Assembly (NCBI GenBank): GCA_048938895.1 | Contig: JBHLLU010000041.1 | Span: 1 to 36,060, forward strand | Origin: Promethearchaeota archaeon | GTDB lineage: Archaea; Asgardarchaeota; Lokiarchaeia; Sigyniarchaeales; SOKP01 | Reading direction: 5' to 3' | Length of the DNA: 36,060 nucleotides | Shown here: one piece after another, positions 4,774 to 28,647 of the stretch | How the letters are laid out: each line of letters starts with the position of its first letter | Numbering within the stretch: position 1 is the stretch's first letter | Made by a program: the position numbers and the translations under genes | The notes under the pieces: generated by a model | What the model was told of the DNA's origin: nothing | Database searches by the model: none | The model's input: only the letters and a program-made list of their open reading frames with translations

Positions 4774-4965
4774 GCTGTTAACTATTTTAAGAAAGTATTT
4801 GTAGAAATTTTTATAGAAGAAAATATCAAATAACCAGAAATTAAATTAAGTATAAAATACAAATATTATCTTAATATCACCTAGGAAATACCATTAAAAA
4901 ATCTTGAAAAATCATAAAAATTTATATAGTTTTCAGAAATACTACACTTAATCACCCTAAGGTTT

Positions 4966-5436
4966 TTGATTATTATGGAAAATGACAATTCCACACAAAA
5001 AAATAAGATTTCCGTAGGCTTAATTTTGACTAACAATGAACTAAATAACAATCCAATTTTTCCTTCTGAAATTAAAGAAGAAATTATGGATTCTCCTTAT
5101 TATCTGCTCATCTTCATTTCAAGAGAAGATGTTGTTAAGATTAGTTGCTTTCCAACACAAAATAAAAATATTAAGAAAATCCTTATCAAGTTGAAAGAAT
5201 TTTCTCCCGATCTCGTAAAAGGTATTTCAAATGTATTAAATGACTTAAATTTGAGCAAAGAAATCCTTCACACCACAGGCCTTTGTTATGAAATGGAAAA
5301 ATGTTTCTATGAAACTTATTTAATCGGGGATATAATTGATTCTGGGGAATTAACGATAAAACAAATTAAAGAAAAATTTATGGCTGTAGCCAACGTTCTC
5401 GAAGTTCAAATCGAGGATATTAATAGCCTTTTATAA
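4966..5436 (+). CDS. Hypothetical protein, possible C-terminal ACT-like fold
   Basis: ILIKLKEFSPDLVKGISNVL...ILHTTG...IKEKFMAVANVLEVQI resembles ACT topology. Likely start is ATG 4975. Confidence 0.55.
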   Translation: MIIMENDNSTQKNKISVGLILTNNELNNNPIFPSEIKEEIMDSPYYLLIFISREDVVKISCFPTQNKNIKKILIKLKEFSPDLVKGISNVLNDLNLSKEILHTTGLCYEMEKCFYETYLIGDIIDSGELTIKQIKEKFMAVANVLEVQIEDINSLL

Positions 5437-5473
5437 TTTTATAGGTTTTTTAAACACTATCTTATTTTTTATC

Positions 5474-5630
5474 ATGAGTAATAAAAAAATTCCCCCCTCC
5501 TCCTCGTCTTCCTCCTTTTATAAAAATCAATAAGAACAATATTTCGTAAAAGGATTGTATGAAATGTGCTGAAAAAGCGCAAGAAGAGGCAAATCTTTGC
5601 ATTAAGTATAAGCAACTGATATTATTGTAG
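5474..5630 (+). pseudogene. Possible decayed Pro-rich / zinc-ribbon mini-gene
   Basis: Removing one C from the C6 run (5492-5497) gives MSNKKIPPPPRLPPFIKINKNNIS*KDCMKCAEKAQEEANLCIKYKQLILL*, with one internal stop. Confidence 0.3.
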
Positions 5631-5646
5631 CAGACCTATTTCATTT

Positions 5647-6039
5647 TTATTCATCAATTCGTTTAATTGCAGAAATCGATCTCCAACCTGTCCAAAAAAT
5701 AAGCATGATAATGATAAATATAAAAAGAGCAGTAGCGAAGGTATACCAGCCAATAAACAGATCCTCTATAAAAGAAAAGGGAATACCAGCGATTGCGAAA
5801 CCCCCTATATACGCATACCCCCAGTATCTATCCTTTAATCCAACTATAACTCCGGGGATAATAGTTGTAAAAATAATTGTTAAATATGACCAAATCTGCA
5901 TTGAATCTAAAATAATTAGCATGTTTATCCAAGAAGCAAAAAAACCGATGATAATCCATACTACTGTGAAAATCGTAAACTTAAACTCAGGTTCTGGTCT
6001 TCCTACTGTTTGTTCTTTACCATTACTTACCATAATCAA
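5647..6039 (-). CDS. Small membrane protein, about 4 TM helices
   Basis: Four hydrophobic segments. Likely start is ATG 6033. Confidence 0.78.
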   Translation of the reverse strand: MIMVSNGKEQTVGRPEPEFKFTIFTVVWIIIGFFASWINMLIILDSMQIWSYLTIIFTTIIPGVIVGLKDRYWGYAYIGGFAIAGIPFSFIEDLFIGWYTFATALFIFIIIMLIFWTGWRSISAIKRIDE

Positions 6040-6269
6040 ATCAAAAGGGGTGTTTTCTGCATATATAATGAGTATAATACTTGATATAATTAATATCCTT
6101 AACTTTCATTGTTATTTAATTAATAATATAGTTAATAATACTATTGATTTAATTTATAAAGTTCTAAACATATACTATCTTTAGGATGAAAATGGTGCAA
6201 AATTTAAAAAAACACCATATAAATTAAATTAGATAAATACTATACGTTAAAAAATCAAATATAAAAAAT

Positions 6270-6410
6270 GCCTCCTGCCTACACCCTGGATTTTTGTCTT
6301 TTGGTAGTGTAAATTTTACACTCTGATTTCGCCCTCCTCCCCCTATTATATTTTTTGACGCGAATATTGCGTCCGTTGGCAGGAGGCTCTACCTTTCTCG
6401 TTTTAGGTAG
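6270..6410. ncRNA. Candidate structured RNA of unknown class
   Basis: 10-bp closing stem GCCTCCTGCC (6270-6279) / GGCAGGAGGC (6378-6387); internal hairpins at 6306-6322 and 6357-6373; flanking hairpin at 6389-6410. GC-richer than the surrounding intergenic DNA. Confidence 0.45.
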
Positions 6411-6719
6411 CTATGTTGAGAAACTCTATTGAAAAATTAATTTGACTTAAAATTAAAAATTAGTTGTCTAATTAACCATCTCCTTGTTTTAAATATTCTC
6501 CATATCCTCGCTGACAATTTTAACCCCACTAAGATAGGATGGATGGAATACTTTCTTAAGGTGATATCATGTGTTGATTTTTATTAAGAATTTGAAGTTT
6601 TTTTAATAATATCGATAATACTATTGTAATTACTAAAAAATTTAAAAGATTCTAATACTTATTATTTAAAATATTAATTATTTAATTAACACAACAATTT
6701 AATAAATTAAAAACATAGT

Positions 6720-8909: not shown

Positions 8910-10169
8910 ATGTCAATTAAAAACGAATTCAAAAATGACAATTCAGAACAGGGTGAGAGACATTCTTATCTTTATCAGAGGAAGCCCGTTCATTTGAAAA
9001 AAGAAAGTGCGGATGATAAATTCGATGTAATTGTACCAAAAAAAAATATTATTGTTCTAATTGTAATTTTTTTGATATTTTTCTTTATTCAATTCTATTA
9101 TTTCAGCGGACTTTACTACAAGCTAATGTTTCCAGATGAACCTTACAATCCTGGGGAGTTCTTTTGGTGGGCACCTTTAGTTTTTATCGCAATTGCAATT
9201 GTTCCTATATTAGCATGGGGTCAGATTGGAGCGCGATTTGGTGCGAGGAGTATGGTAAAATACTTAAGGAAAACAGTATCAAAAACTAGACCAAAAGCTG
9301 CAGAAATTATTTTGGGATATCCTCTCAGAACAAAAGATATTTACTACCTTGAAACATATCCCATGGATTTAAATTTGGGGAAAGGATTTACGAGCATAAA
9401 GGTTTTTATCAAGAGGGTACTGAACGTGTTATTTCTTTCCATGGGTATGAGTGTGGTAATTTCTCAAATAGTAGCTCCATATATTTATGAGCGTATTATT
9501 GCATGGGATGCTGATTATTATTTTAATATCGAGGAAATGATCATAGATCTTACGATTTATTTGGGTCCTTTTACTTTACTAATCCTTATGTTCGTTATGC
9601 CTGTATTTTGGATTGCGGAGGATACTCAAGCCTATCGAGTTAATGAGTATCAAGACTCTGTCCGTTTAGGCTATTATTTGAGAACTGGAATATTAAGCAA
9701 AATTCTTGGATTCTTTGGGTTAGTTATTGTATATAATTTAGCTCAACAATTTGCTTCTGCTCTTTTGGCTGGAGGTGATCCAATTGAAATTTCGGCTTTA
9801 ATGGATAATCCATTACTTGCCATCCAAGTGTACACCACAACTTTTATCTGGTTTGCTATTATTCTTGGAATGTGCGCGGGAATTCCCTTTTTAGTTACAC
9901 TGGTATATTTAGTTTTCTATCACGAAAGATGGGTAAATAATGTAAGAGTTAAGGCCAGTGAATTTATGGAGCTTGGTACATTAGAAGTCCGAGAACCCCG
10001 GGAAGCCAATTTGAAGTATATGAAGAATTCTGAGATGATCGATGAAACTGGTGGATTTTTCCAAACTACTCATGGAAGAGTAATTCTTATCGTATTGATA
10101 ATAGTCGTAGCTTTAATTTGCTTCTATCTTGCATTTATTTTAGGTTTTGAAGAAGCTCTATTTGGGTAA
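8910..10169 (+). CDS. Multi-pass membrane protein of unknown function
   Basis: About 7 hydrophobic segments. ATG 8910 is preferred over the TTG at 8862. Confidence 0.8.
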   Translation: MSIKNEFKNDNSEQGERHSYLYQRKPVHLKKESADDKFDVIVPKKNIIVLIVIFLIFFFIQFYYFSGLYYKLMFPDEPYNPGEFFWWAPLVFIAIAIVPILAWGQIGARFGARSMVKYLRKTVSKTRPKAAEIILGYPLRTKDIYYLETYPMDLNLGKGFTSIKVFIKRVLNVLFLSMGMSVVISQIVAPYIYERIIAWDADYYFNIEEMIIDLTIYLGPFTLLILMFVMPVFWIAEDTQAYRVNEYQDSVRLGYYLRTGILSKILGFFGLVIVYNLAQQFASALLAGGDPIEISALMDNPLLAIQVYTTTFIWFAIILGMCAGIPFLVTLVYLVFYHERWVNNVRVKASEFMELGTLEVREPREANLKYMKNSEMIDETGGFFQTTHGRVILIVLIIVVALICFYLAFILGFEEALFG

Positions 10170-13234: not shown

Positions 13235-14659
13235 TTAACTCATTTTCCAATGAGGTCCATCCTCAGAATCCTCAATTTGAATACCTACAGAACGTAATTT
13301 CTCCCGAATATCATCACTCATTTTATAATTCTTTTCTTTTCTTGCTTTTTCTCTAAGGTTGATAATGAGATCCATTAATTCATTTATTTTTGTATCATCT
13401 AGTCCTTTCTTTTTAGTGAAATCGAGTCCTAAAACCCCCAGTAATTCAAGTAGAGTTTCTTGAGCCCTTTCAAGTGTTTGCTTTTTATTATCTAATGAGG
13501 AATTTATTTGTCTTATGAATTCATGAATAGCTGCAATTGCTTTAGGATTATTGAAATCATCATCCATGGCTTCCTCAAAATTTTGTTTAACTTCCTCTAT
13601 GGCCTGATTGAGGTTTATTTTATTACCTCCTGAAGAATCTGCAATTAAGCTTAAACAATTCCGAATTCTTTCCACATTTTTCTTTGCGTTCTCAATTATA
13701 TCTGGATTCCAATCGGCAGCAGTTCGATAATGTCCTGCTACTAATCCCATACGAACAACAAGGCCTCCATATTTATCTATCAATTCACGGGCAGTAACAT
13801 AATTACCCAGGCTTTTACTCATTTTTTTTCCATTAACCGTAATGAATTCAGCATGCATCCAATAACGAACAAACTTTTTCCCAGTTGCAGCTTCAGCTTG
13901 AGCAATTTCATTTGGATGGTGAGTTGGGATATGATCAATCCCTCCTCCATGAATATCTAATGTTTCTCCTAAAAATTTCATTCCCATTATAGAACACTCA
14001 AGATGCCAACCAGGATATCCCCAGCCCCAGGGAGAATCCCAACGCATAATATGGATTTGATCACCTTTTTGAGCATTCAACCACAGAGCAAAATCAAAAT
14101 AGTTCTTTTTAAGAGGATCTTTATCAACACGGGCTTTTGCTTGTTCTTCATCAAGTTTTATTTTTGCAAGTTTCCCATAATCCTTGAATTTAGAAACATC
14201 ATAATATACATTTCCTTCAACTTCATACGCATATCCTTTATCTATAAGAGTCTTTATTAAGGCAATCATTTCAGGTATAACCGAAGTTGCTCTTGGACTA
14301 ATATTTGGTCTGTTAATATTCAATTCATCAATAACACGCCAGTATTCCTCGATTTCTCTATCTACTAACTCCCAAGGATTGATTTTTTCTTCACGCGCTC
14401 TTTTTTCTATCTTATCTTCCCCTTGATCAGCATCATCTGTTAAATGTCCTACATCAGTAAAATTTTGTACATGAAGTACTTTGTATCCTTTATACTTTAA
14501 ATAACGAATTACAATATCCCAGGCACTGTATGTTCTTGCATTTCCTATGTGACACTTTTCGTATACAGTCTGCCCACAAGTGTAGATCTTTACAGTTCCT
14601 TCTTCTAGTGGTGTAAAAACTTCCTTCTGTCTTGTCATAGTATTAAAGATTCTGAGCAT
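13235..14659 (-). CDS. cysS: Cysteinyl-tRNA synthetase
   Basis: YTCGQTVY..CHIGNAR, NFTDV, DFALW, PGWHLECS, DIHGGG.D...HH.NE, KMSKSLGN. Start taken at MLRIFNT (14659). Confidence 0.97.
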   Translation of the reverse strand: MLRIFNTMTRQKEVFTPLEEGTVKIYTCGQTVYEKCHIGNARTYSAWDIVIRYLKYKGYKVLHVQNFTDVGHLTDDADQGEDKIEKRAREEKINPWELVDREIEEYWRVIDELNINRPNISPRATSVIPEMIALIKTLIDKGYAYEVEGNVYYDVSKFKDYGKLAKIKLDEEQAKARVDKDPLKKNYFDFALWLNAQKGDQIHIMRWDSPWGWGYPGWHLECSIMGMKFLGETLDIHGGGIDHIPTHHPNEIAQAEAATGKKFVRYWMHAEFITVNGKKMSKSLGNYVTARELIDKYGGLVVRMGLVAGHYRTAADWNPDIIENAKKNVERIRNCLSLIADSSGGNKINLNQAIEEVKQNFEEAMDDDFNNPKAIAAIHEFIRQINSSLDNKKQTLERAQETLLELLGVLGLDFTKKKGLDDTKINELMDLIINLREKARKEKNYKMSDDIREKLRSVGIQIEDSEDGPHWKMS

Positions 14660-14733
14660 AACAAAGAAAAGCATAAGAAAATATAATAATTTTACGGAGT
14701 TAAATTACAAGTGGAAATTTGAAATAGAAAAAA

Positions 14734-17589
14734 TTAATTTTTTACATCTAAATACGCGTTAACTACATAATTATCTATATTGATTTTCTTATAATCTACT
14801 TTACCTTCAATACTTCTGAATATATTATCTGCTTGTACCATTTTTTTTATTTTTTCTTCGTGTTTCTCAATTGATTTCAGAATGTCTTTACTTTCTGTAG
14901 TTATGTAAAGATCTATTCGATTTTTCGGTGATAATTTCAATCGTTTTCTATAATTATTAAGATTTCTGATTAGATTTCGTGCTATTCCTTCAAGCTTTAA
15001 TTCTGCGTTAATATTTGTATCTAATTCAACCGTAAGCTCTTTACCATCTTTATTTTCAATTATAACATCTCTGACATTTAAAGCATTTAGAATGACCTGT
15101 AAGAAATCATTATCAAGAGATACTCCCCTTATTGTTAGTTTCTGCAATGGTTGTCTAACAGGAATTTTAGAATTTTCTCTTAATTCTAATGCTCTTTTTA
15201 TAACTTCTCTGGATACATCCATGCTTTTATGTATCTGAGGTCTAATTAATTTTTCATTATATTTCGGCCATAGTTCTAAATGAACAGAATCATAGCTAAC
15301 TAATCTACTTTCTCTCAATTTTTGATATATCATCTCAGCTATAAATGGAGTAAGGGGCGCTAGCAATTTTGATAGATTATAAAGTATATAAGATAATGTA
15401 TTCATAGCAGATGATTTTTCACGAATATCTTCACTTTTAAATCGATCTCTACTGTTTTTAACATACCAAGTGGACAGGTCCTCAACAAAAGCAAAGAAAA
15501 ACCTACTTACTTCTGCAGTATCATAATCTTCCATTCTTTCAGTAACATCCCGAATTAAGATATGTAACAAGCTGACAATCCATTTATCTAAGATATTGTT
15601 TGAATTAGATATATCCATAGCTCCTTCTCTAAAATCAATCATAGAATAAAATTTAAGAACGTTTATTAACAATAGATTAAACCTACGGTAAACTTGCTTT
15701 ATGATTTCTTCTTTAAAATTTAAATCCTTTGCCCTCATTAGTTGCGATGATAATAAATAGACTCTCAAGGCGTCTGCACCGTAATTTTCAATTATTATGT
15801 TTGGATCGGGGAAATTTCGTTTTGATTTAGACATTTTAGTTCCATCTTCAGCGAGAATATTACCATTTACAACTACGTGTTTAAACGGTATATCATTAAA
15901 TACTAAAATTGATATCACATGCATATAATAAAACCATGCTCTTACTTGTCCTATGTATTCTGAGACAAAATCACTTGGATAATTTGTCTTAAACCATTCA
16001 ACATTTTCAAAAGGGTAATGCTTTGCAGCAAAAGGCATCGAACCTGATTCTAACCAGCAATCAAATACTTCGGGAATACGATTCATTATTTTTTTACAGC
16101 TTGGGCATCGAAGATGAATTTCATCAACTATGTGTTTATGCAAATCTAAACTATTTGGCACCTTCTCTATAGCATTTTCTTGTAATTCTTTAACCGAACC
16201 GATAACTCTTATCTCATTACAATTCTCACACTCCCAAATTGGTATAGCTGTAGCCCAAAACCGATTTCTAGAGATACACCAATCTGGAGCTGTTTCGATT
16301 ATATTCTGGTATCTCTTCACTACATCCTTGGGATACCATTTAATAGCTTTATTAGTCTCCAGGAGTCTTGACTTTAATTGCTGAATATTTATAAACCACG
16401 CATCAAGAGCATTATAAATAAGTGGAGTATCGCATCTATAACAAAACGGATACGAATGTGCGTAATCTTCGGAATTAAATAATAGATTTCTTTGTTTCAA
16501 ATCCTCTAAAATTTCTTTATCTAAATCTTTAAACCACATACCAATCCACTCATTTGGACCACTTTTTAACTCCCCATGTTCATCAATATGCTGAATTGTG
16601 GTCAAATTGAATTTCTTTATCATCTCATAATCAAATTCTCCGTAAATTGCCAAATGAATAATTCCTGTTCCCTCATCGGAAAGAACATCTTCACCTCCAT
16701 CAACAATGATATGAGCAGTCCCATTTGAAGAATCAGAAATTTGATATAATGGTTTATATTTTTGATTAACTAGTTCTTTTCCCTCAAATTCCTTAATGAC
16801 TTCATAATTGGTTTTTATAATATCTAATCTGTTTTTAATTAAAATTAAAATTTCATTATTGACCTTAACTTTAACATATTTTTGCTCACTATTTATAGCT
16901 AATGCCACATTTCCGATTAGAGTCCAAGGTGTTGTCGTCCAAGCTAAAAGAAATGTTCCTGGTTCTCCTCTTAATTCAAATTTGGCAGTTACAGATTCTT
17001 CAGTAACATCCTTATAGCTATTATCCATTGAAATCTCAAAGTTAGAAAGTGGAGTTTCACAGCGAGGACAATAAAACAATACTTTTTTACCTTTATATAC
17101 AAATCCTTCATTATAGATTTTCTTGAAAATATACCACACAGTTTCCATATACGTATTATCCATGGTTTTATAAGAATTATCAAATTCTATCCATTTACCC
17201 ATTCTTTCAACAGTCTTTTTCCATTCATTTGCATTCCATAATACCTTTGATCGACAAAACTCATTGAAATCTGCTATACCCATCTCATAGATCTCATTCT
17301 TTTGTTTTATATTAAGAGATTTTTCACAAACACTTTCTATAGGAAGTCCGTGGCAATCCCAACCCCATCTTCTTTCACAACGATATCCTTTCATCGTCCA
17401 ATATCTCGGGAATACATCTTTTGTAACAATACTTAAGATATTTCCATAATGTGGCCTACCAGTAGCGAATGGGGGACCATCATAAAATACATAAGGTTTA
17501 TTCTCTGGTCTTTCTTCTACACTTCTTTCAAAGATTTGATTGTCATTCCAAAATTGGATGAGTTTTTTTTCCTTTTCATTATATGACAT
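14734..17589 (-). CDS. ileS: Isoleucyl-tRNA synthetase, type-2-like (no C-terminal zinc finger seen)
   Basis: DGPPFATGRPHYGN, GWDCHGLPIE, WTTTPWTL editing motif, DWCISRNRFW, KMSKS. A GGTGA SD precedes ATG 17589 (the ORF track extends to 17619). Confidence 0.96.
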   Translation of the reverse strand: MSYNEKEKKLIQFWNDNQIFERSVEERPENKPYVFYDGPPFATGRPHYGNILSIVTKDVFPRYWTMKGYRCERRWGWDCHGLPIESVCEKSLNIKQKNEIYEMGIADFNEFCRSKVLWNANEWKKTVERMGKWIEFDNSYKTMDNTYMETVWYIFKKIYNEGFVYKGKKVLFYCPRCETPLSNFEISMDNSYKDVTEESVTAKFELRGEPGTFLLAWTTTPWTLIGNVALAINSEQKYVKVKVNNEILILIKNRLDIIKTNYEVIKEFEGKELVNQKYKPLYQISDSSNGTAHIIVDGGEDVLSDEGTGIIHLAIYGEFDYEMIKKFNLTTIQHIDEHGELKSGPNEWIGMWFKDLDKEILEDLKQRNLLFNSEDYAHSYPFCYRCDTPLIYNALDAWFINIQQLKSRLLETNKAIKWYPKDVVKRYQNIIETAPDWCISRNRFWATAIPIWECENCNEIRVIGSVKELQENAIEKVPNSLDLHKHIVDEIHLRCPSCKKIMNRIPEVFDCWLESGSMPFAAKHYPFENVEWFKTNYPSDFVSEYIGQVRAWFYYMHVISILVFNDIPFKHVVVNGNILAEDGTKMSKSKRNFPDPNIIIENYGADALRVYLLSSQLMRAKDLNFKEEIIKQVYRRFNLLLINVLKFYSMIDFREGAMDISNSNNILDKWIVSLLHILIRDVTERMEDYDTAEVSRFFFAFVEDLSTWYVKNSRDRFKSEDIREKSSAMNTLSYILYNLSKLLAPLTPFIAEMIYQKLRESRLVSYDSVHLELWPKYNEKLIRPQIHKSMDVSREVIKRALELRENSKIPVRQPLQKLTIRGVSLDNDFLQVILNALNVRDVIIENKDGKELTVELDTNINAELKLEGIARNLIRNLNNYRKRLKLSPKNRIDLYITTESKDILKSIEKHEEKIKKMVQADNIFRSIEGKVDYKKINIDNYVVNAYLDVKN

Positions 17590-17632
17590 GCTTATCACCA
17601 TATTTTTGATTTCAAACACTTGAACATTACAT

Positions 17633-17823
17633 AAAAAAAAAATAATTATATTTTAAAGAACAAAATCATGGCCTTTGTTATCCATGAAGCAGGATGTGGA
17701 AAAAAGGCTATGAGAATCTGCTTCATGAAAAATATAATTTACCCAATAATAATAGATGTGATTATAACTATGGTTTCTATTGATTTTAAGAAATTTTTTG
17801 GTTTACTCATAGCATCCACATCC
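17633..17823 (-). promoter_or_regulatory. Putative attenuator: alternative RNA stems plus U-tracts in the ileS leader
   Basis: A (17806-17823) pairs with C (17692-17714) as 9+8 bp. B (17718-17727) pairs with D (17683-17692) as 10 bp. Part of C (17703-17713) pairs with E (17666-17676) at 10/11 bp. These are followed by UUUUGUUCUUU and a U10 run. Confidence 0.7.
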
Positions 17824-17825
17824 AT
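17739..17825 (-). CDS. Ile-rich leader peptide of ileS (28 aa, MDVDAMSKPKNFLKSIETIVIITSIIIG)
   Basis: 7 of the last 13 sense codons are Ile (ATA x3, ATC, ATT x3). The ORF ends 150 nt upstream of the ileS start. A TATA-like TTTTTAAA lies about 30 nt upstream of the ATG. A second in-frame ATG is at 17810. Confidence 0.78.
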   Translation of the reverse strand: MDVDAMSKPKNFLKSIETIVIITSIIIG

Positions 17826-18012
17826 GTCTACAATTATATTAAGACATTAAATTTTAAAAAATTGATGGTGATTTAGCATAAATTGTGTTATCGCAAAGAA
17901 TAACAATTTTCTTTTAGCTCAAATATAAAAAATCTAAATTTATCAGATATATAAAATAGATCCAAATAGGACTTTTTAATTATTTCAAACAACAAAATCT
18001 TGAGGGATAATA

Positions 18013-18441
18013 ATGAGGTCTATTGAATCTGAAATTAAGCGAGTTATCATAGGAAAGGTTGAACCTGATGAAGATCTTATTGATTCTGTGATTAATATGA
18101 TAAATATTCATAAGATTGGTTCTGGTTTAATTAATTGTATCGGGGCTTTGAAAAAATTCACCTTAGGTTACTTTGATTTCCCTTCAAAAGAATATTTGAG
18201 AAAGGAATTTGATATGTTCGTTGAGCTTGTCTCATGTATGGGTAATATTTCATTTAAAGACGGAGAACCAATAGTTCACCTCCATGCTACTTTAGGAACT
18301 AAAGATTATACAATACTAGGCGGACATTTATTCCAACCAAGCATAATCTCAATAACAGGTGAAGTCTATATCTATGGAATAGATAAGAAGCTAAACAGAA
18401 CCACAGATCCTCAACTTGGCTTAACACTTTTGAATATTTAA
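18013..18441 (+). CDS. PPC / DUF296 domain protein
   Basis: CIGAL, ELVSCMGNIS, PIVHLHATLG, GGHL motifs. Confidence 0.92.
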   Translation: MRSIESEIKRVIIGKVEPDEDLIDSVINMINIHKIGSGLINCIGALKKFTLGYFDFPSKEYLRKEFDMFVELVSCMGNISFKDGEPIVHLHATLGTKDYTILGGHLFQPSIISITGEVYIYGIDKKLNRTTDPQLGLTLLNI

Positions 18442-18458
18442 CGATCTAGGTGGAAAAA

Positions 18459-18989
18459 ATGGTAGAAAAAAAAATTAATCTAAAATTAGCTTTACTGGGA
18501 GACCCAGCAGTAGGAAAAACATCTTTGATTAATCGTTATACAGAGGAAGGTTTTAAAGATAATTATCAACCAACCTTAGGCGTTAATATTGTAATGAAAA
18601 AGCTCAAATTTAATGATCATGAAGTTCAAATGGCCATTTGGGATATTGCAGGACAAGATAAATACGATTTGACTCGTAAAATGTTTTTTGAAGGGTGCAG
18701 TGCATGTCTTCTCGTCTATGATAAATCTAGATCATCAACTTTTGATAGAATTCAGTCAAAATGGCTAGGAGACTTTAGAAAATTTGCACGACCAAATGGT
18801 ATTTATGTTTTAATCGGAAATAAAAGTGATTTGAAAGATTCAAAGTCAGTTTCCACAGAAAAAGGTCAAGGATTAGCTGAAGAGATTCAGGCAAGTGAAT
18901 TCATTGAAACTAGCGCAAAACTTGGTGATAATGTCGAAATTGCATTTAAAAAACTTGTTTCCCATGCACTAACCAAATTTAATATTTAA
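18459..18989 (+). CDS. Rab-like small GTPase
   Basis: G1 GDPAVGKT, G2 YQPTLG, G3 WDIAGQ, G4 NKSD, G5 ETSAK; no C-terminal Cys motif. A GGTGG SD favours ATG 18459 over GTG 18450. Confidence 0.95.
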   Translation: MVEKKINLKLALLGDPAVGKTSLINRYTEEGFKDNYQPTLGVNIVMKKLKFNDHEVQMAIWDIAGQDKYDLTRKMFFEGCSACLLVYDKSRSSTFDRIQSKWLGDFRKFARPNGIYVLIGNKSDLKDSKSVSTEKGQGLAEEIQASEFIETSAKLGDNVEIAFKKLVSHALTKFNI

Positions 18990-25431: not shown

Positions 25432-27729
<2,298 letters not shown>

Positions 27730-27825
27730 TTATTAATTAAAATAAGCTATAATACCACAAGTGATTAAAGTATTTATGCTTTATTTTCTTTATCTTTAAT
27801 TTTTATAATATTAACTAACATTAAA

Positions 27826-28647
27826 CTAAAATACTTTATCAGAAATTATGATATTTAATCTTTTTTCTAAGTACCCTTTGAAAGTAATTTCAATCTCATC
27901 ATCTATTAGGCGATTCTTATAAAGTTTTATAAAAGACTTTCTTAGATTTATAATAGCGCTTTTCATAGAAGCAAACTGGGAATCTTGTAATAACTTTCCT
28001 ACATATTGTCGAGTGATTTTATCTAACTTCTGATTATCCCTGTTAAGAATTTCTTCCTCTTTCTGTTCCTTTTTTAATATCCCACTTGAGGATTTTACTT
28101 TTTTCTTCAAAATGCGAACTAAATCTTCAATTCTATCATCTAAATCTTGTATTTGATACAAATCATATGTACTTTCAGGAGTGTCCCATTGATATCTCCC
28201 AAAATTGTCAAATCTCCTATGAATTTTCTTAATAATTTTGTTAGGTATGGGTTTTCCTCTATTATTATTCCATTTCATACAAATTTCAAGGGGTGTAGAA
28301 ATATGGATTATATAGTATTCGATCTTGAATTCATCTGAAAGTTTCTTTAAATCATGTCTCATACTAGTATAATAATTTAAATCGTCGCTAATTACAATGT
28401 ATTCTTCTTGTAGCTTTTTTTTTACTTCTTTTAAATTAATTTCCCTTACTTTAGGCTCAGATTTATAATCAAATTTATTCGGCGTCAACGAGTTTCGTAT
28501 TTTATCAGGATCAATAATTATAACTTTGTTTGTATTGAAGTTCTGTTCTATCTTGATCTTTAATATATTAGCAAAAGTGGTTTTTCCTGAAGCAGGTAAT
28601 CCCACTAAGCACACTATAAAATTTTTACTTACCACCATTAATCTCAA
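27826..28647 (-). CDS. pstK: L-seryl-tRNA(Sec) kinase (PSTK; KTI12/PSTK family)
   Basis: GLPASGKTT, DKIR, DDLNYYTSMRHDL, RGKPIPN..I....RFD....Y.WD.P, and C-terminal LDKITR..V...LRK.F, all characteristic of archaeal PSTK. Confidence 0.88.
   Translation of the reverse strand: MRLMVVSKNFIVCLVGLPASGKTTFANILKIKIEQNFNTNKVIIIDPDKIRNSLTPNKFDYKSEPKVREINLKEVKKKLQEEYIVISDDLNYYTSMRHDLKKLSDEFKIEYYIIHISTPLEICMKWNNNRGKPIPNKIIKKIHRRFDNFGRYQWDTPESTYDLYQIQDLDDRIEDLVRILKKKVKSSSGILKKEQKEEEILNRDNQKLDKITRQYVGKLLQDSQFASMKSAIINLRKSFIKLYKNRLIDDEIEITFKGYLEKRLNIIISDKVF

Follow-up and report, generated by a model that had tools for sequence, protein, structure and literature searches.

The window considered here is the whole stretch of 36,060 nucleotides from contig JBHLLU010000041.1 of a Promethearchaeota archaeon (genome G000 of our set, in which contigs carry C numbers and compared loci L numbers). 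On its reverse strand it holds, at 14734-17589, a gene for an isoleucine-tRNA ligase, here called ileS2, and ahead of this gene, on the same strand at 17739-17825, a short open reading frame (ORF) rich in isoleucine codons, which is the subject of this work. The ileS2 product, 951 amino acids from the ATG at 17589, scores 822.3 bits on TIGR00392, where the cut-off is 621.4, and carries the Pfam domains tRNA-synt_1, Anticodon_1 and DUF5915. An initial annotation, made from the DNA letters alone, had called this gene simply ileS, and the enzyme assignment stood (TIGR00392, 822 bits), while the gene proved to be a second, accessory paralog and not the housekeeping copy. A search of 41 related genomes found a canonical isoleucyl-tRNA synthetase (IleRS) of 1048-1061 amino acids in the same genomes, with only 32-34% identity to the ileS2 product, and in the genome of the window this canonical gene, ileS1, lies at C146:41084-44014. 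Orthologs of ileS2 with 70-83% identity were present in 13 of 24 other sampled genomes of the genus, and the closest kin outside the group, with one genome taken per species, were those of DPANN archaea (55-59%), followed by those of Candidate Phyla Radiation (CPR) bacteria (36-50%). Since ileS2 is closer to the DPANN and CPR enzymes than to the IleRS1 of its own host, it is probably a horizontally acquired second IleRS, and because these DPANN and CPR relatives have no leader, the short ORF described below probably arose after the transfer.

This leader ORF of 28 codons plus TAA encodes MDVDAMSKPKNFLKSIETIVIITSIIIG, and its codons read ATG GAT GTG GAT GCT ATG AGT AAA CCA AAA AAT TTC TTA AAA TCA ATA GAA ACC ATA GTT ATA ATC ACA TCT ATT ATT ATT GGG TAA. 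The initial annotation had placed a 28-codon, Ile-rich ORF with all three types of isoleucine codon about 150 nt upstream of ileS, and this description was confirmed: all seven isoleucines fall within codons 16-27 (ATA three times, ATC once and ATT three times), and 149 nt separate the leader stop from the ATG of the gene at 17589. Counted from an in-frame inner ATG at 17810-17808, the leader has 23 codons, and this inner codon is the only start codon that is invariant in relatives, the outer one being ATG, GTG, ACG or TTA. The codons of greatest interest are the three consecutive AUU at 17745-17753, followed here by GGG and TAA. Their nine positions show zero entropy over the 37 distinct leader sequences from orthologous loci that make up our total set, with the bases ATTATTATT invariant in every one. 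In 35 of these 37 leaders, the AUU run is followed by exactly one codon and then the stop, the other two having additional ATT codons. The intervening codon is ATC in 19 leaders and otherwise encodes Arg, Gly, Ser, Lys, Glu, Gln or Ile, and three to six consecutive isoleucine codons stand beside the stop.

The conservation of this leader follows that of its gene. In 14 of 14 orthologous loci, an ORF of 24-42 codons starts with ATG and has its end 149-174 nt ahead of ileS2, and when 68 loci were compared, one genome per species, the leader ORF was present in all 32 loci with at least 65% ileS2 identity. In the more distant loci (DPANN, CPR and others), the motif of segment A, an RNA segment described below, was found in none of 36, and four of them had an unrelated short ORF with a run of three isoleucines at other distances. 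Searched in 54 genomes of the genus, an exact pattern that combines two conserved segments, A and its complement, gave one match per genome in 26 of them, and the genome G013 brings the genomes with the element to 27 of 54; the reversed control of the pattern matched in one genome. The ORF is open in all 37 sequences, with a length of 25-30 codons from the outer start or 20-25 from the inner ATG, and the gaps inside it are all of 3, 6 or 12 nt. Its codons 2-11 have nearly the same entropy at the three codon positions (0.83, 0.93 and 0.88), which together with the in-frame gaps suggests that it is the frame and the length that are under selection, and not the peptide. Read from the alignment, this pattern is the signature of a leader peptide and not that of a functional small protein. 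Moreover, isoleucine codons are used genome-wide as 51% ATT, 33% ATA and 15% ATC, and three consecutive invariant ATT codons against this mixture point to a constraint beyond coding for isoleucine.

The background rate of such ORFs was taken from the 3,746 intergenic short ORFs of 8-50 codons in the genome, among which 31 (0.8%) have three consecutive isoleucines in their last five codons and only three have at least seven isoleucines in their last 13 codons, two of these three lying ahead of ileS2 and of a citramalate synthase gene. A chance origin of the leader was rejected, given its conservation over 37 sequences and the recurrence of the cognate pattern in five systems, and the leader observation is real and far beyond chance. 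A loss of the leader and of its Ile cluster in orthologous loci would have spoken against the initial annotation, and the opposite was found, with the ORF, its frame, its length and the AUU run kept in all 37. In the genome of the window, no short ORF rich in the cognate codons was found before the canonical ileS1 or before valS. Upstream of a ValRS-like gene ending at about 6888 on the reverse strand of contig C138, we noticed by eye an apparent tRNA gene and no Val-rich short ORF.

The RNA of this leader contains five segments, all on the reverse strand, that are predicted to pair in alternative ways. Segment A (GGAUGUGGA, 17815-17823) would supply the 5' strand to either of two alternative helices, looks like a Shine-Dalgarno sequence that serves the inner AUG, and is invariant in 35 of the 37 sequences, both variants being compensated in its pairing partners. 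Segment C1 (UCACAUCUAU, 17752-17761) lies inside the ORF, overlaps the first AUU by two bases, and pairs with A in the helix that we call P1. Beyond the stop, segment B (CAUGAAGCAG, 17718-17727), 11 nt past it, is the 5' arm of a hairpin, P2, whose 3' arm is segment D (CUGCUUCAUG, 17683-17692), while segment C2 (UCCACAUCC, 17692-17700), a perfect complement of A, occupies the P2 loop directly against the 3' arm and shares base 17692 with D. Both P1 (A:C1) and P2 (B:D) were predicted by RNAalifold. P1 has 10 pairs with 96.4% of cells paired and two-sided changes in 3 of them, and P2 has 15 alignment pairs with 91.5% of cells paired and two-sided changes in 7; taken together, two-sided changes occur in 10 of 25 pairs with 93.5% of cells paired, and sliding the pairing by 1-3 columns lowers the paired fraction to 35-49%. 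In most relatives, P2 is lengthened by AU pairs to 15 bp, and it starts 3-11 nt past the stop. The third helix, A:C2, has 9 pairs with 99.1% of cells paired, and its independent compensations are two, a G-C to A-U change in L076 and an A-U to U-A change in L078, plus two G.U pairs. The G-to-A change of L076 in segment A is matched in C1 and also in C2. Where C1 is not fully complementary to A, the result is nearly always G.U on the sense strand, which argues for RNA pairing rather than for repeated DNA sites. As judged by this covariation, the leader RNA has two competing folds, with A paired either to C1 or to C2. The initial annotation had named an associated RNA structure as important support for its reading, and such a structure is present, with compensatory changes and with a switch under a modelled stall.

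This switch was modelled by means of minimum-energy folds of 33 leaders, each taken from a point shortly before A as far as the ileS2 start; a stalled ribosome was mimicked by forcing the 12 nt to either side of the AUU run to be unpaired. Unconstrained, the two alternatives were close to equal in energy, and the folds contained A:C1 in 14 of 33, A:C2 in 16 and B:D in 12, and when the footprint was held unpaired, A:C2 rose to 29 of 33, while B:D fell to 3 and A:C1 to none. A:C2 and P2 never occurred together in the nested folds of the 33 leaders. In these models, the leader helices are mutually exclusive and the choice between them depends on the position of the ribosome.

The initial annotation had also pointed to other aminoacyl-tRNA synthetase and biosynthesis genes as places where such leaders might recur. 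When the genomes were scanned for short ORFs in whose tail a single amino acid is enriched and their downstream genes were assigned to families, four further cognate leaders were found beyond that of ileS2, before trpB2, trpD, cimA and leuS. In each of the four, a conserved hairpin at or just past the stop was seen in sequences read by eye, and in the leuS and cimA leaders a helix was seen that links the 5' portion of the ORF with the stretch around the regulatory codons. The Trp-rich leader of trpB2, MKLATTPEWCWQWPWRWR (C67, about 9640-9696, forward strand), stands 160 nt before a gene for a TrpB-like enzyme (C67:9857-11257; NF009057, 639.6 bits), and was kept in all 30 of the genus loci fetched (L125 and L130-L159). 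A compensated hairpin surrounds its last Trp codons and stop, and a conserved structured block precedes the trpB2 start. The Trp-rich leader of trpD, MSTVKIFSWRWQCWWRV (C53, reverse strand, before the gene at 27101-28183), lies 168 nt ahead of its gene (TIGR01245, 408 bits) and was present in five of six genus loci (L160 and L173-L178), trpD itself being found in only 6 of 54 genus genomes. A 3' conserved block is common to the trpD and trpB2 leaders in some relatives.

The Ile-rich leader of cimA, MRLVLIPIVGITILLIIIGII (C75, reverse strand, before the gene at 4886-6505), precedes by 106 nt a gene for citramalate synthase (TIGR00977, 684 bits), the enzyme that opens the pyruvate route to isoleucine. 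This leader was found in three of three loci (L162 and L170-L172), 106-108 nt before the gene and reading MKLKLKPIIGIIAIFIIIIGIII in two relatives, and the citramalate synthase gene was found in only 3 of 54 genus genomes. We observed in it a hairpin and then UUUU at the stop, as well as a compensated helix inside the ORF. Finally, the Leu-rich leader of leuS, MMLNKTVFRYYLKEKLLLDELLTVLLL (C125, about 17500-17800, forward strand), is located some 135 nt before a single archaeal-type leuS (locus L260:438-3338; TIGR00395, 925 bits), and was present in 18 of 18 genus loci (L243-L259), the peptide ending in LVDLLAVLLL(S) before the stop. The distance from its TATA element to its ATG suggests a leaderless mRNA, its codons 4-7 are linked to the Leu run by a helix, and a GC-rich hairpin with a U-rich loop extends from its stop.

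At a wider scale, the coding motif of the Trp leaders, TGGCARTGGCCNTGG, occurred in 43 of the 301 genomes sampled from the phylum, a control pattern giving a single match. It was found in 37 of 68 sampled genomes of the family of the window and in eight of nine sampled genera, and in other genera of this family it stood ahead of trpD or trpB2; outside the family, it appeared in five genomes with matches that do not resemble leaders. Another pattern, TGGNNNTGGNNNTGGNNNTGG, was tried over the same 301 genomes and discarded as uninformative, given that it matched glycine-rich repeats and its control counts were similar. Of the other short ORFs enriched in a single amino acid, eight of ten preceded unrelated genes (among them DNA polymerase, NAD synthase, SMC-like and PhzF-family genes), and in a neighbouring family no Leu-rich leader was found before leuS in two genomes, three of the five genomes giving no query match. 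On this comparative evidence, the best reading is that the ileS2 element is a member of a larger group of cognate leaders within a single Asgard family.

We consider it likely, from the comparative and folding evidence together, that the element senses charged tRNA-Ile in cis and controls the accessory ileS2 gene as a ribosome-mediated attenuator. The ORF, the Ile codons, the three helices, their mutual exclusion and their dependence on a stall come from comparative sequence analysis and folding; beyond these, we infer that the ORF is translated, where its transcription starts, in which direction the regulation works and that termination is the step affected. The transcript would begin with a short 5' region containing segment A, followed by a leader ORF of 23-28 codons that a ribosome would translate while the RNA is being made. 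With abundant Ile-tRNA, the ribosome would pass AUU AUU AUU and terminate, A would pair with C1 behind it to form P1, and P2 would fold right after the stop codon. With Ile-tRNA in short supply, the ribosome would stall on the AUU run with C1 inside its footprint, leaving A free to capture C2 once it is transcribed, and P2 would then be blocked because C2 lies in the P2 loop directly against the 3' arm. The form with P1 and P2 would lead to non-productive transcripts, most likely because transcription would end prematurely ahead of ileS2, either at the U-rich block further down or by the action of a termination factor, whereas the A:C2 form would let RNA polymerase read into ileS2. Since A:C2 is favoured in 16 of 33 folds even in the absence of the stall constraint, such a switch would have to be kinetic. 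C1 is transcribed about 50 nt ahead of C2, and with C1 made before C2, A would take C1 unless a ribosome covers it.

The candidate promoter of the leader is a T-rich TATA-like box, ATTTTTTAAAAT, at 17851-17862 on the reverse strand, whose T run is invariant or nearly so in 33 upstream regions, the relative L076 having TTATAAAA in its place. By the archaeal promoter geometry, as we assume it, this box would set the transcription start 2-6 nt upstream of segment A. Further downstream, at 17633-17657, an AT-rich block, TTTAAAATATAA followed by T10, is a candidate for either an oligo-U termination site or a second ileS promoter, and such a block stands 50-70 nt ahead of ileS in all clades. U runs of at least five lie 40-60 nt beyond P2 and, in the alignment as read by eye, occur in most sequences; chance alone would produce T runs of this length in DNA so rich in A and T. 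The G+C content of the window is about 31%. An intrinsic terminator, that is, a hairpin with a U run directly after it, was tried as an alternative structure and rejected, given the lack of a U run after P2.

Several observations weigh against the attenuator as we propose it. A second TATA-like element stands about 22 nt before the inner ATG, and if this were the promoter, the mRNA would be leaderless from the inner AUG and segment A would lie outside the RNA; the leuS, cimA and trpB2 leaders have exactly such a leaderless geometry. The AT-rich block could be a separate ileS2 promoter, in which case the leader would be uncoupled from the gene. No hairpin-plus-U terminator was found after P2, which is followed by AUAAAUAAA and by no U run, and several sequences, in an alignment read by eye, appear to have no T run of at least five before ileS. 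The covariation score of P1 and P2 together was matched by none of 500 shuffles, a support that is overstated by the kinship of the sequences, and A and C2 are nearly all invariant, so that the covariation in favour of A:C2 amounts to two single-sequence compensations and two G.U pairs. In addition, A:C2 is already the minimum-energy form in the 16 unconstrained folds mentioned above. With respect to the transcription start, the covariation of A with its partners favours a start just upstream of A rather than a leaderless mRNA. In archaea, termination may not need a hairpin at all, and the missing terminator thus lowers the case for membership in the bacterial family of attenuators and not the case for a functional analogy with them. 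In its core, the ribosome-mediated attenuation put forward in the initial annotation is supported by the leader and the RNA switch, no canonical terminator having been found.

The most serious rival keeps the same sensor and the same RNA switch and places the output in the initiation of ileS2 translation or in mRNA stability, for example, by pairing of the C2-D junction with the ileS2 ribosome-binding site, or by a stalled ribosome and a paired 5' end that guard against 5'-to-3' decay. It would account for a P2 with no hairpin-plus-U terminator behind it, and it has a mycobacterial precedent, in which stalled ribosomes are reported to block structures that sequester the ribosome-binding site (bioRxiv 10.1101/834739). 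No other leader segment is as complementary to the ribosome-binding site of ileS2 as the C2-D junction, taken as a 12-nt window, which has a modest mean of -5.46 kcal/mol against -3.95 for shuffled sites, and reaches -6 kcal/mol or lower in 42% of the 33 sequences and -8.5 to -13.3 in L062, L064 and L091. However, this complementarity is weak in some clades (-2.4 in L109 and -4.7 in L067), and the junction is GC-richer than its surroundings. The predicted accessibility of the ileS2 Shine-Dalgarno and start was the same with or without the stall constraint in essentially all 33 sequences, and that of the start barely moved for leuS (0.58 against 0.55, 18 sequences) and for trpB2 (0.40 against 0.39, 29 sequences), so that constrained folding gives no sign of start-site sequestration as the output for these three genes. 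A hairpin of D with a further segment, E, and a pairing of E to the ribosome-binding site were both seen by eye in the clade of the window, and both were dropped because other clades do not conserve them. We regard this rival as rather unlikely, and co-transcriptional attenuation is, on the modelled folds, the most likely output of the switch.

Two other explanations would remove the sensor altogether, and we give very little credence to either. The ORF could encode a small hydrophobic protein, separately transcribed, with a function of its own and next to ileS2 for other reasons, the Ile run belonging to a membrane segment, and indeed the C-terminus of the peptide is hydrophobic, Ile-rich ORFs arise readily in AT-rich genomes (31 of 3,746 short ORFs with three isoleucines near the end), and a T-rich tract with a possible second promoter lies between the ORF and ileS2. 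Nevertheless, the equal variation of codons 2-11 at their three positions points to a peptide free of purifying selection, and the peptide differs greatly among clades except in its three-isoleucine motif. A protein of this kind also fits poorly with nine bases, AUUAUUAUU, that are invariant even though synonymous codons are possible, with an element found only before ileS2 and once per genome, and with four more leaders that match the amino acid of their downstream genes. Just as improbable, in our view, is that the ORF is incidental and that a transcription factor binds the DNA at A, C1 and C2, one of them a promoter operator and the other two downstream sites. Segment A does lie between the TATA-like element and the inner ATG, a frequent location of repressor binding in archaea, A and C2 hardly vary, which can also be true of protein-binding sites, and the change in L076 is common to all three copies. 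Against such DNA sites, however, the deviations of C1 are of the G.U type (pair 11-72 is GU in 27, GC in 10 and other in 0 sequences, and pair 14-69 is GU in 35, GC in 1 and other in 1), P2 has 7 compensated pairs around C2, and the invariant Ile codons, the in-frame indels and the cognate leaders elsewhere are all left unexplained.

Around the attenuator and its gene, the following features complete the locus. The Shine-Dalgarno core of ileS2, GGUG, at 17596-17599 on the reverse strand, is kept in the alignments, and the ribosome-binding motif of the genome is of the GGAGGTGAT type, with a GGTG peak 9-14 nt before start codons. This motif was deduced from upstream k-mers instead of the 16S rRNA, which was searched for its anti-Shine-Dalgarno sequence with RF01959 and not found in G000, G006, G002 or G024. 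On the same strand as ileS2, cysS (13235-14674; TIGR00435, 503 bits) begins 59 nt downstream of it (14734 to 14674), and not some 75 nt as initially annotated. It is the only CysRS gene found in this genome, as a single tblastn match, and it follows ileS2 in 20 of 32 related loci, an arrangement not seen in the more divergent clade. Divergent from the leader, on the forward strand at 18013-18989, are a PCC-domain gene (PF03479) and a gene for a Ras-family small GTPase (PF00071, E 2.9e-47), the former holding its position beside the leader in 9 of 32 related loci.

Leader-peptide attenuation is a textbook bacterial mechanism that needs a ribosome close behind RNA polymerase, and its known cases include ilvL, thrL and trpL of E. 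coli, as well as pheM ahead of pheST. The proposed ileS2 attenuator resembles these bacterial systems in having a short ORF ahead of the gene on the same strand, cognate codons clustered near its stop, and mutually exclusive helices that would be set by the position of the ribosome, and it resembles pheM-pheST in that the gene controlled encodes an aminoacyl-tRNA synthetase. In contrast to them, it belongs to an archaeal host with a eukaryote-like RNA polymerase, its decision point has no stem-loop with a U run, the strand that would oppose the hairpin comes from the very 5' end of the RNA, freed when a ribosome masks its first partner, the spacer between leader and gene is 126-175 nt, and it has no match among 4,227 Rfam families. 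The ileS2 leader thus appears, as judged from its sequence features, to share the sensor logic of the bacterial attenuators and to fail their hairpin-plus-U terminator feature. Searches of window positions 17000-18500 with the Rfam covariance models, up to an E value of 1, gave no match, the T-box included, and those at the four other leader loci gave only one chance-level match, outside the leaders.

The so-called Cys ribulon of mycobacteria (bioRxiv 10.1101/834739) is reported to be a set of leaderless short ORFs with poly-cysteine tracts, in which stalling within the codon tract unblocks a downstream ribosome-binding site. It is similar to the leaders described here in its unannotated 5' short ORFs, in the run of one codon type as sensor, in the several operons involved, and in a stall that remodels the RNA downstream; it differs in that the accessibility of the ileS2 start is predicted to be unchanged, and in the domain of life and the amino acids sensed (here Ile, Leu and Trp). 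Control of bacterial ileS by the T-box (PMC1262725) works by direct binding of uncharged tRNA with no translation required, and in Priestia megaterium a constitutive IleRS1 is reported to stand beside a stress-induced IleRS2 (bioRxiv 10.1101/2022.02.09.479832). In both the T-box and Bacilli cases, IleRS expression is tied to the charging of tRNA-Ile, as we propose here, and a leader-free ileS1 with a leader-controlled ileS2 parallels the Priestia pair. Unlike the T-box, the ileS2 element would depend on translation, and it has no T-box match. Passages on short ORFs of the 5' untranslated region in ribosome profiling (Ribo-seq) studies of Methanosarcina and Haloferax name them only as possible upstream ORFs, and a 2025 perspective on archaeal coupling lists attenuation as a bacterial role of coupling. 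Our full-text searches, whose scope left aside supplementary files as a possible home of lists of archaeal upstream ORFs, found no archaeal amino-acid-sensing leader peptide.

In a broader and somewhat less assured proposal, towards which we still lean, this Asgard family would run a ribulon of its own, in which Ile, Leu and Trp leaders before ileS2, leuS, cimA, trpB2 and trpD sense tRNA charging by ribosome stalling and set a co-transcriptional RNA switch. This would be the first such system in Archaea and would imply functional transcription-translation coupling, with an effector other than the bacterial hairpin-plus-U terminator, possibly factor-dependent termination, acting on a eukaryote-like RNA polymerase, and with an ileS2 leader that arose after the acquisition of its gene. 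The comparative case consists of five cognate systems, all from the lineage that is nearest to eukaryotes. If true, these leaders would constitute the first amino-acid-sensing leader-peptide control in Archaea and a natural RNA switch working on an archaeal, Pol II-like polymerase; they would show how a horizontally acquired synthetase has been wired into the amino-acid sensing of its host, and they would provide testable evidence of regulatory transcription-translation coupling in the Asgard archaea, the closest prokaryotic kin of eukaryotes.

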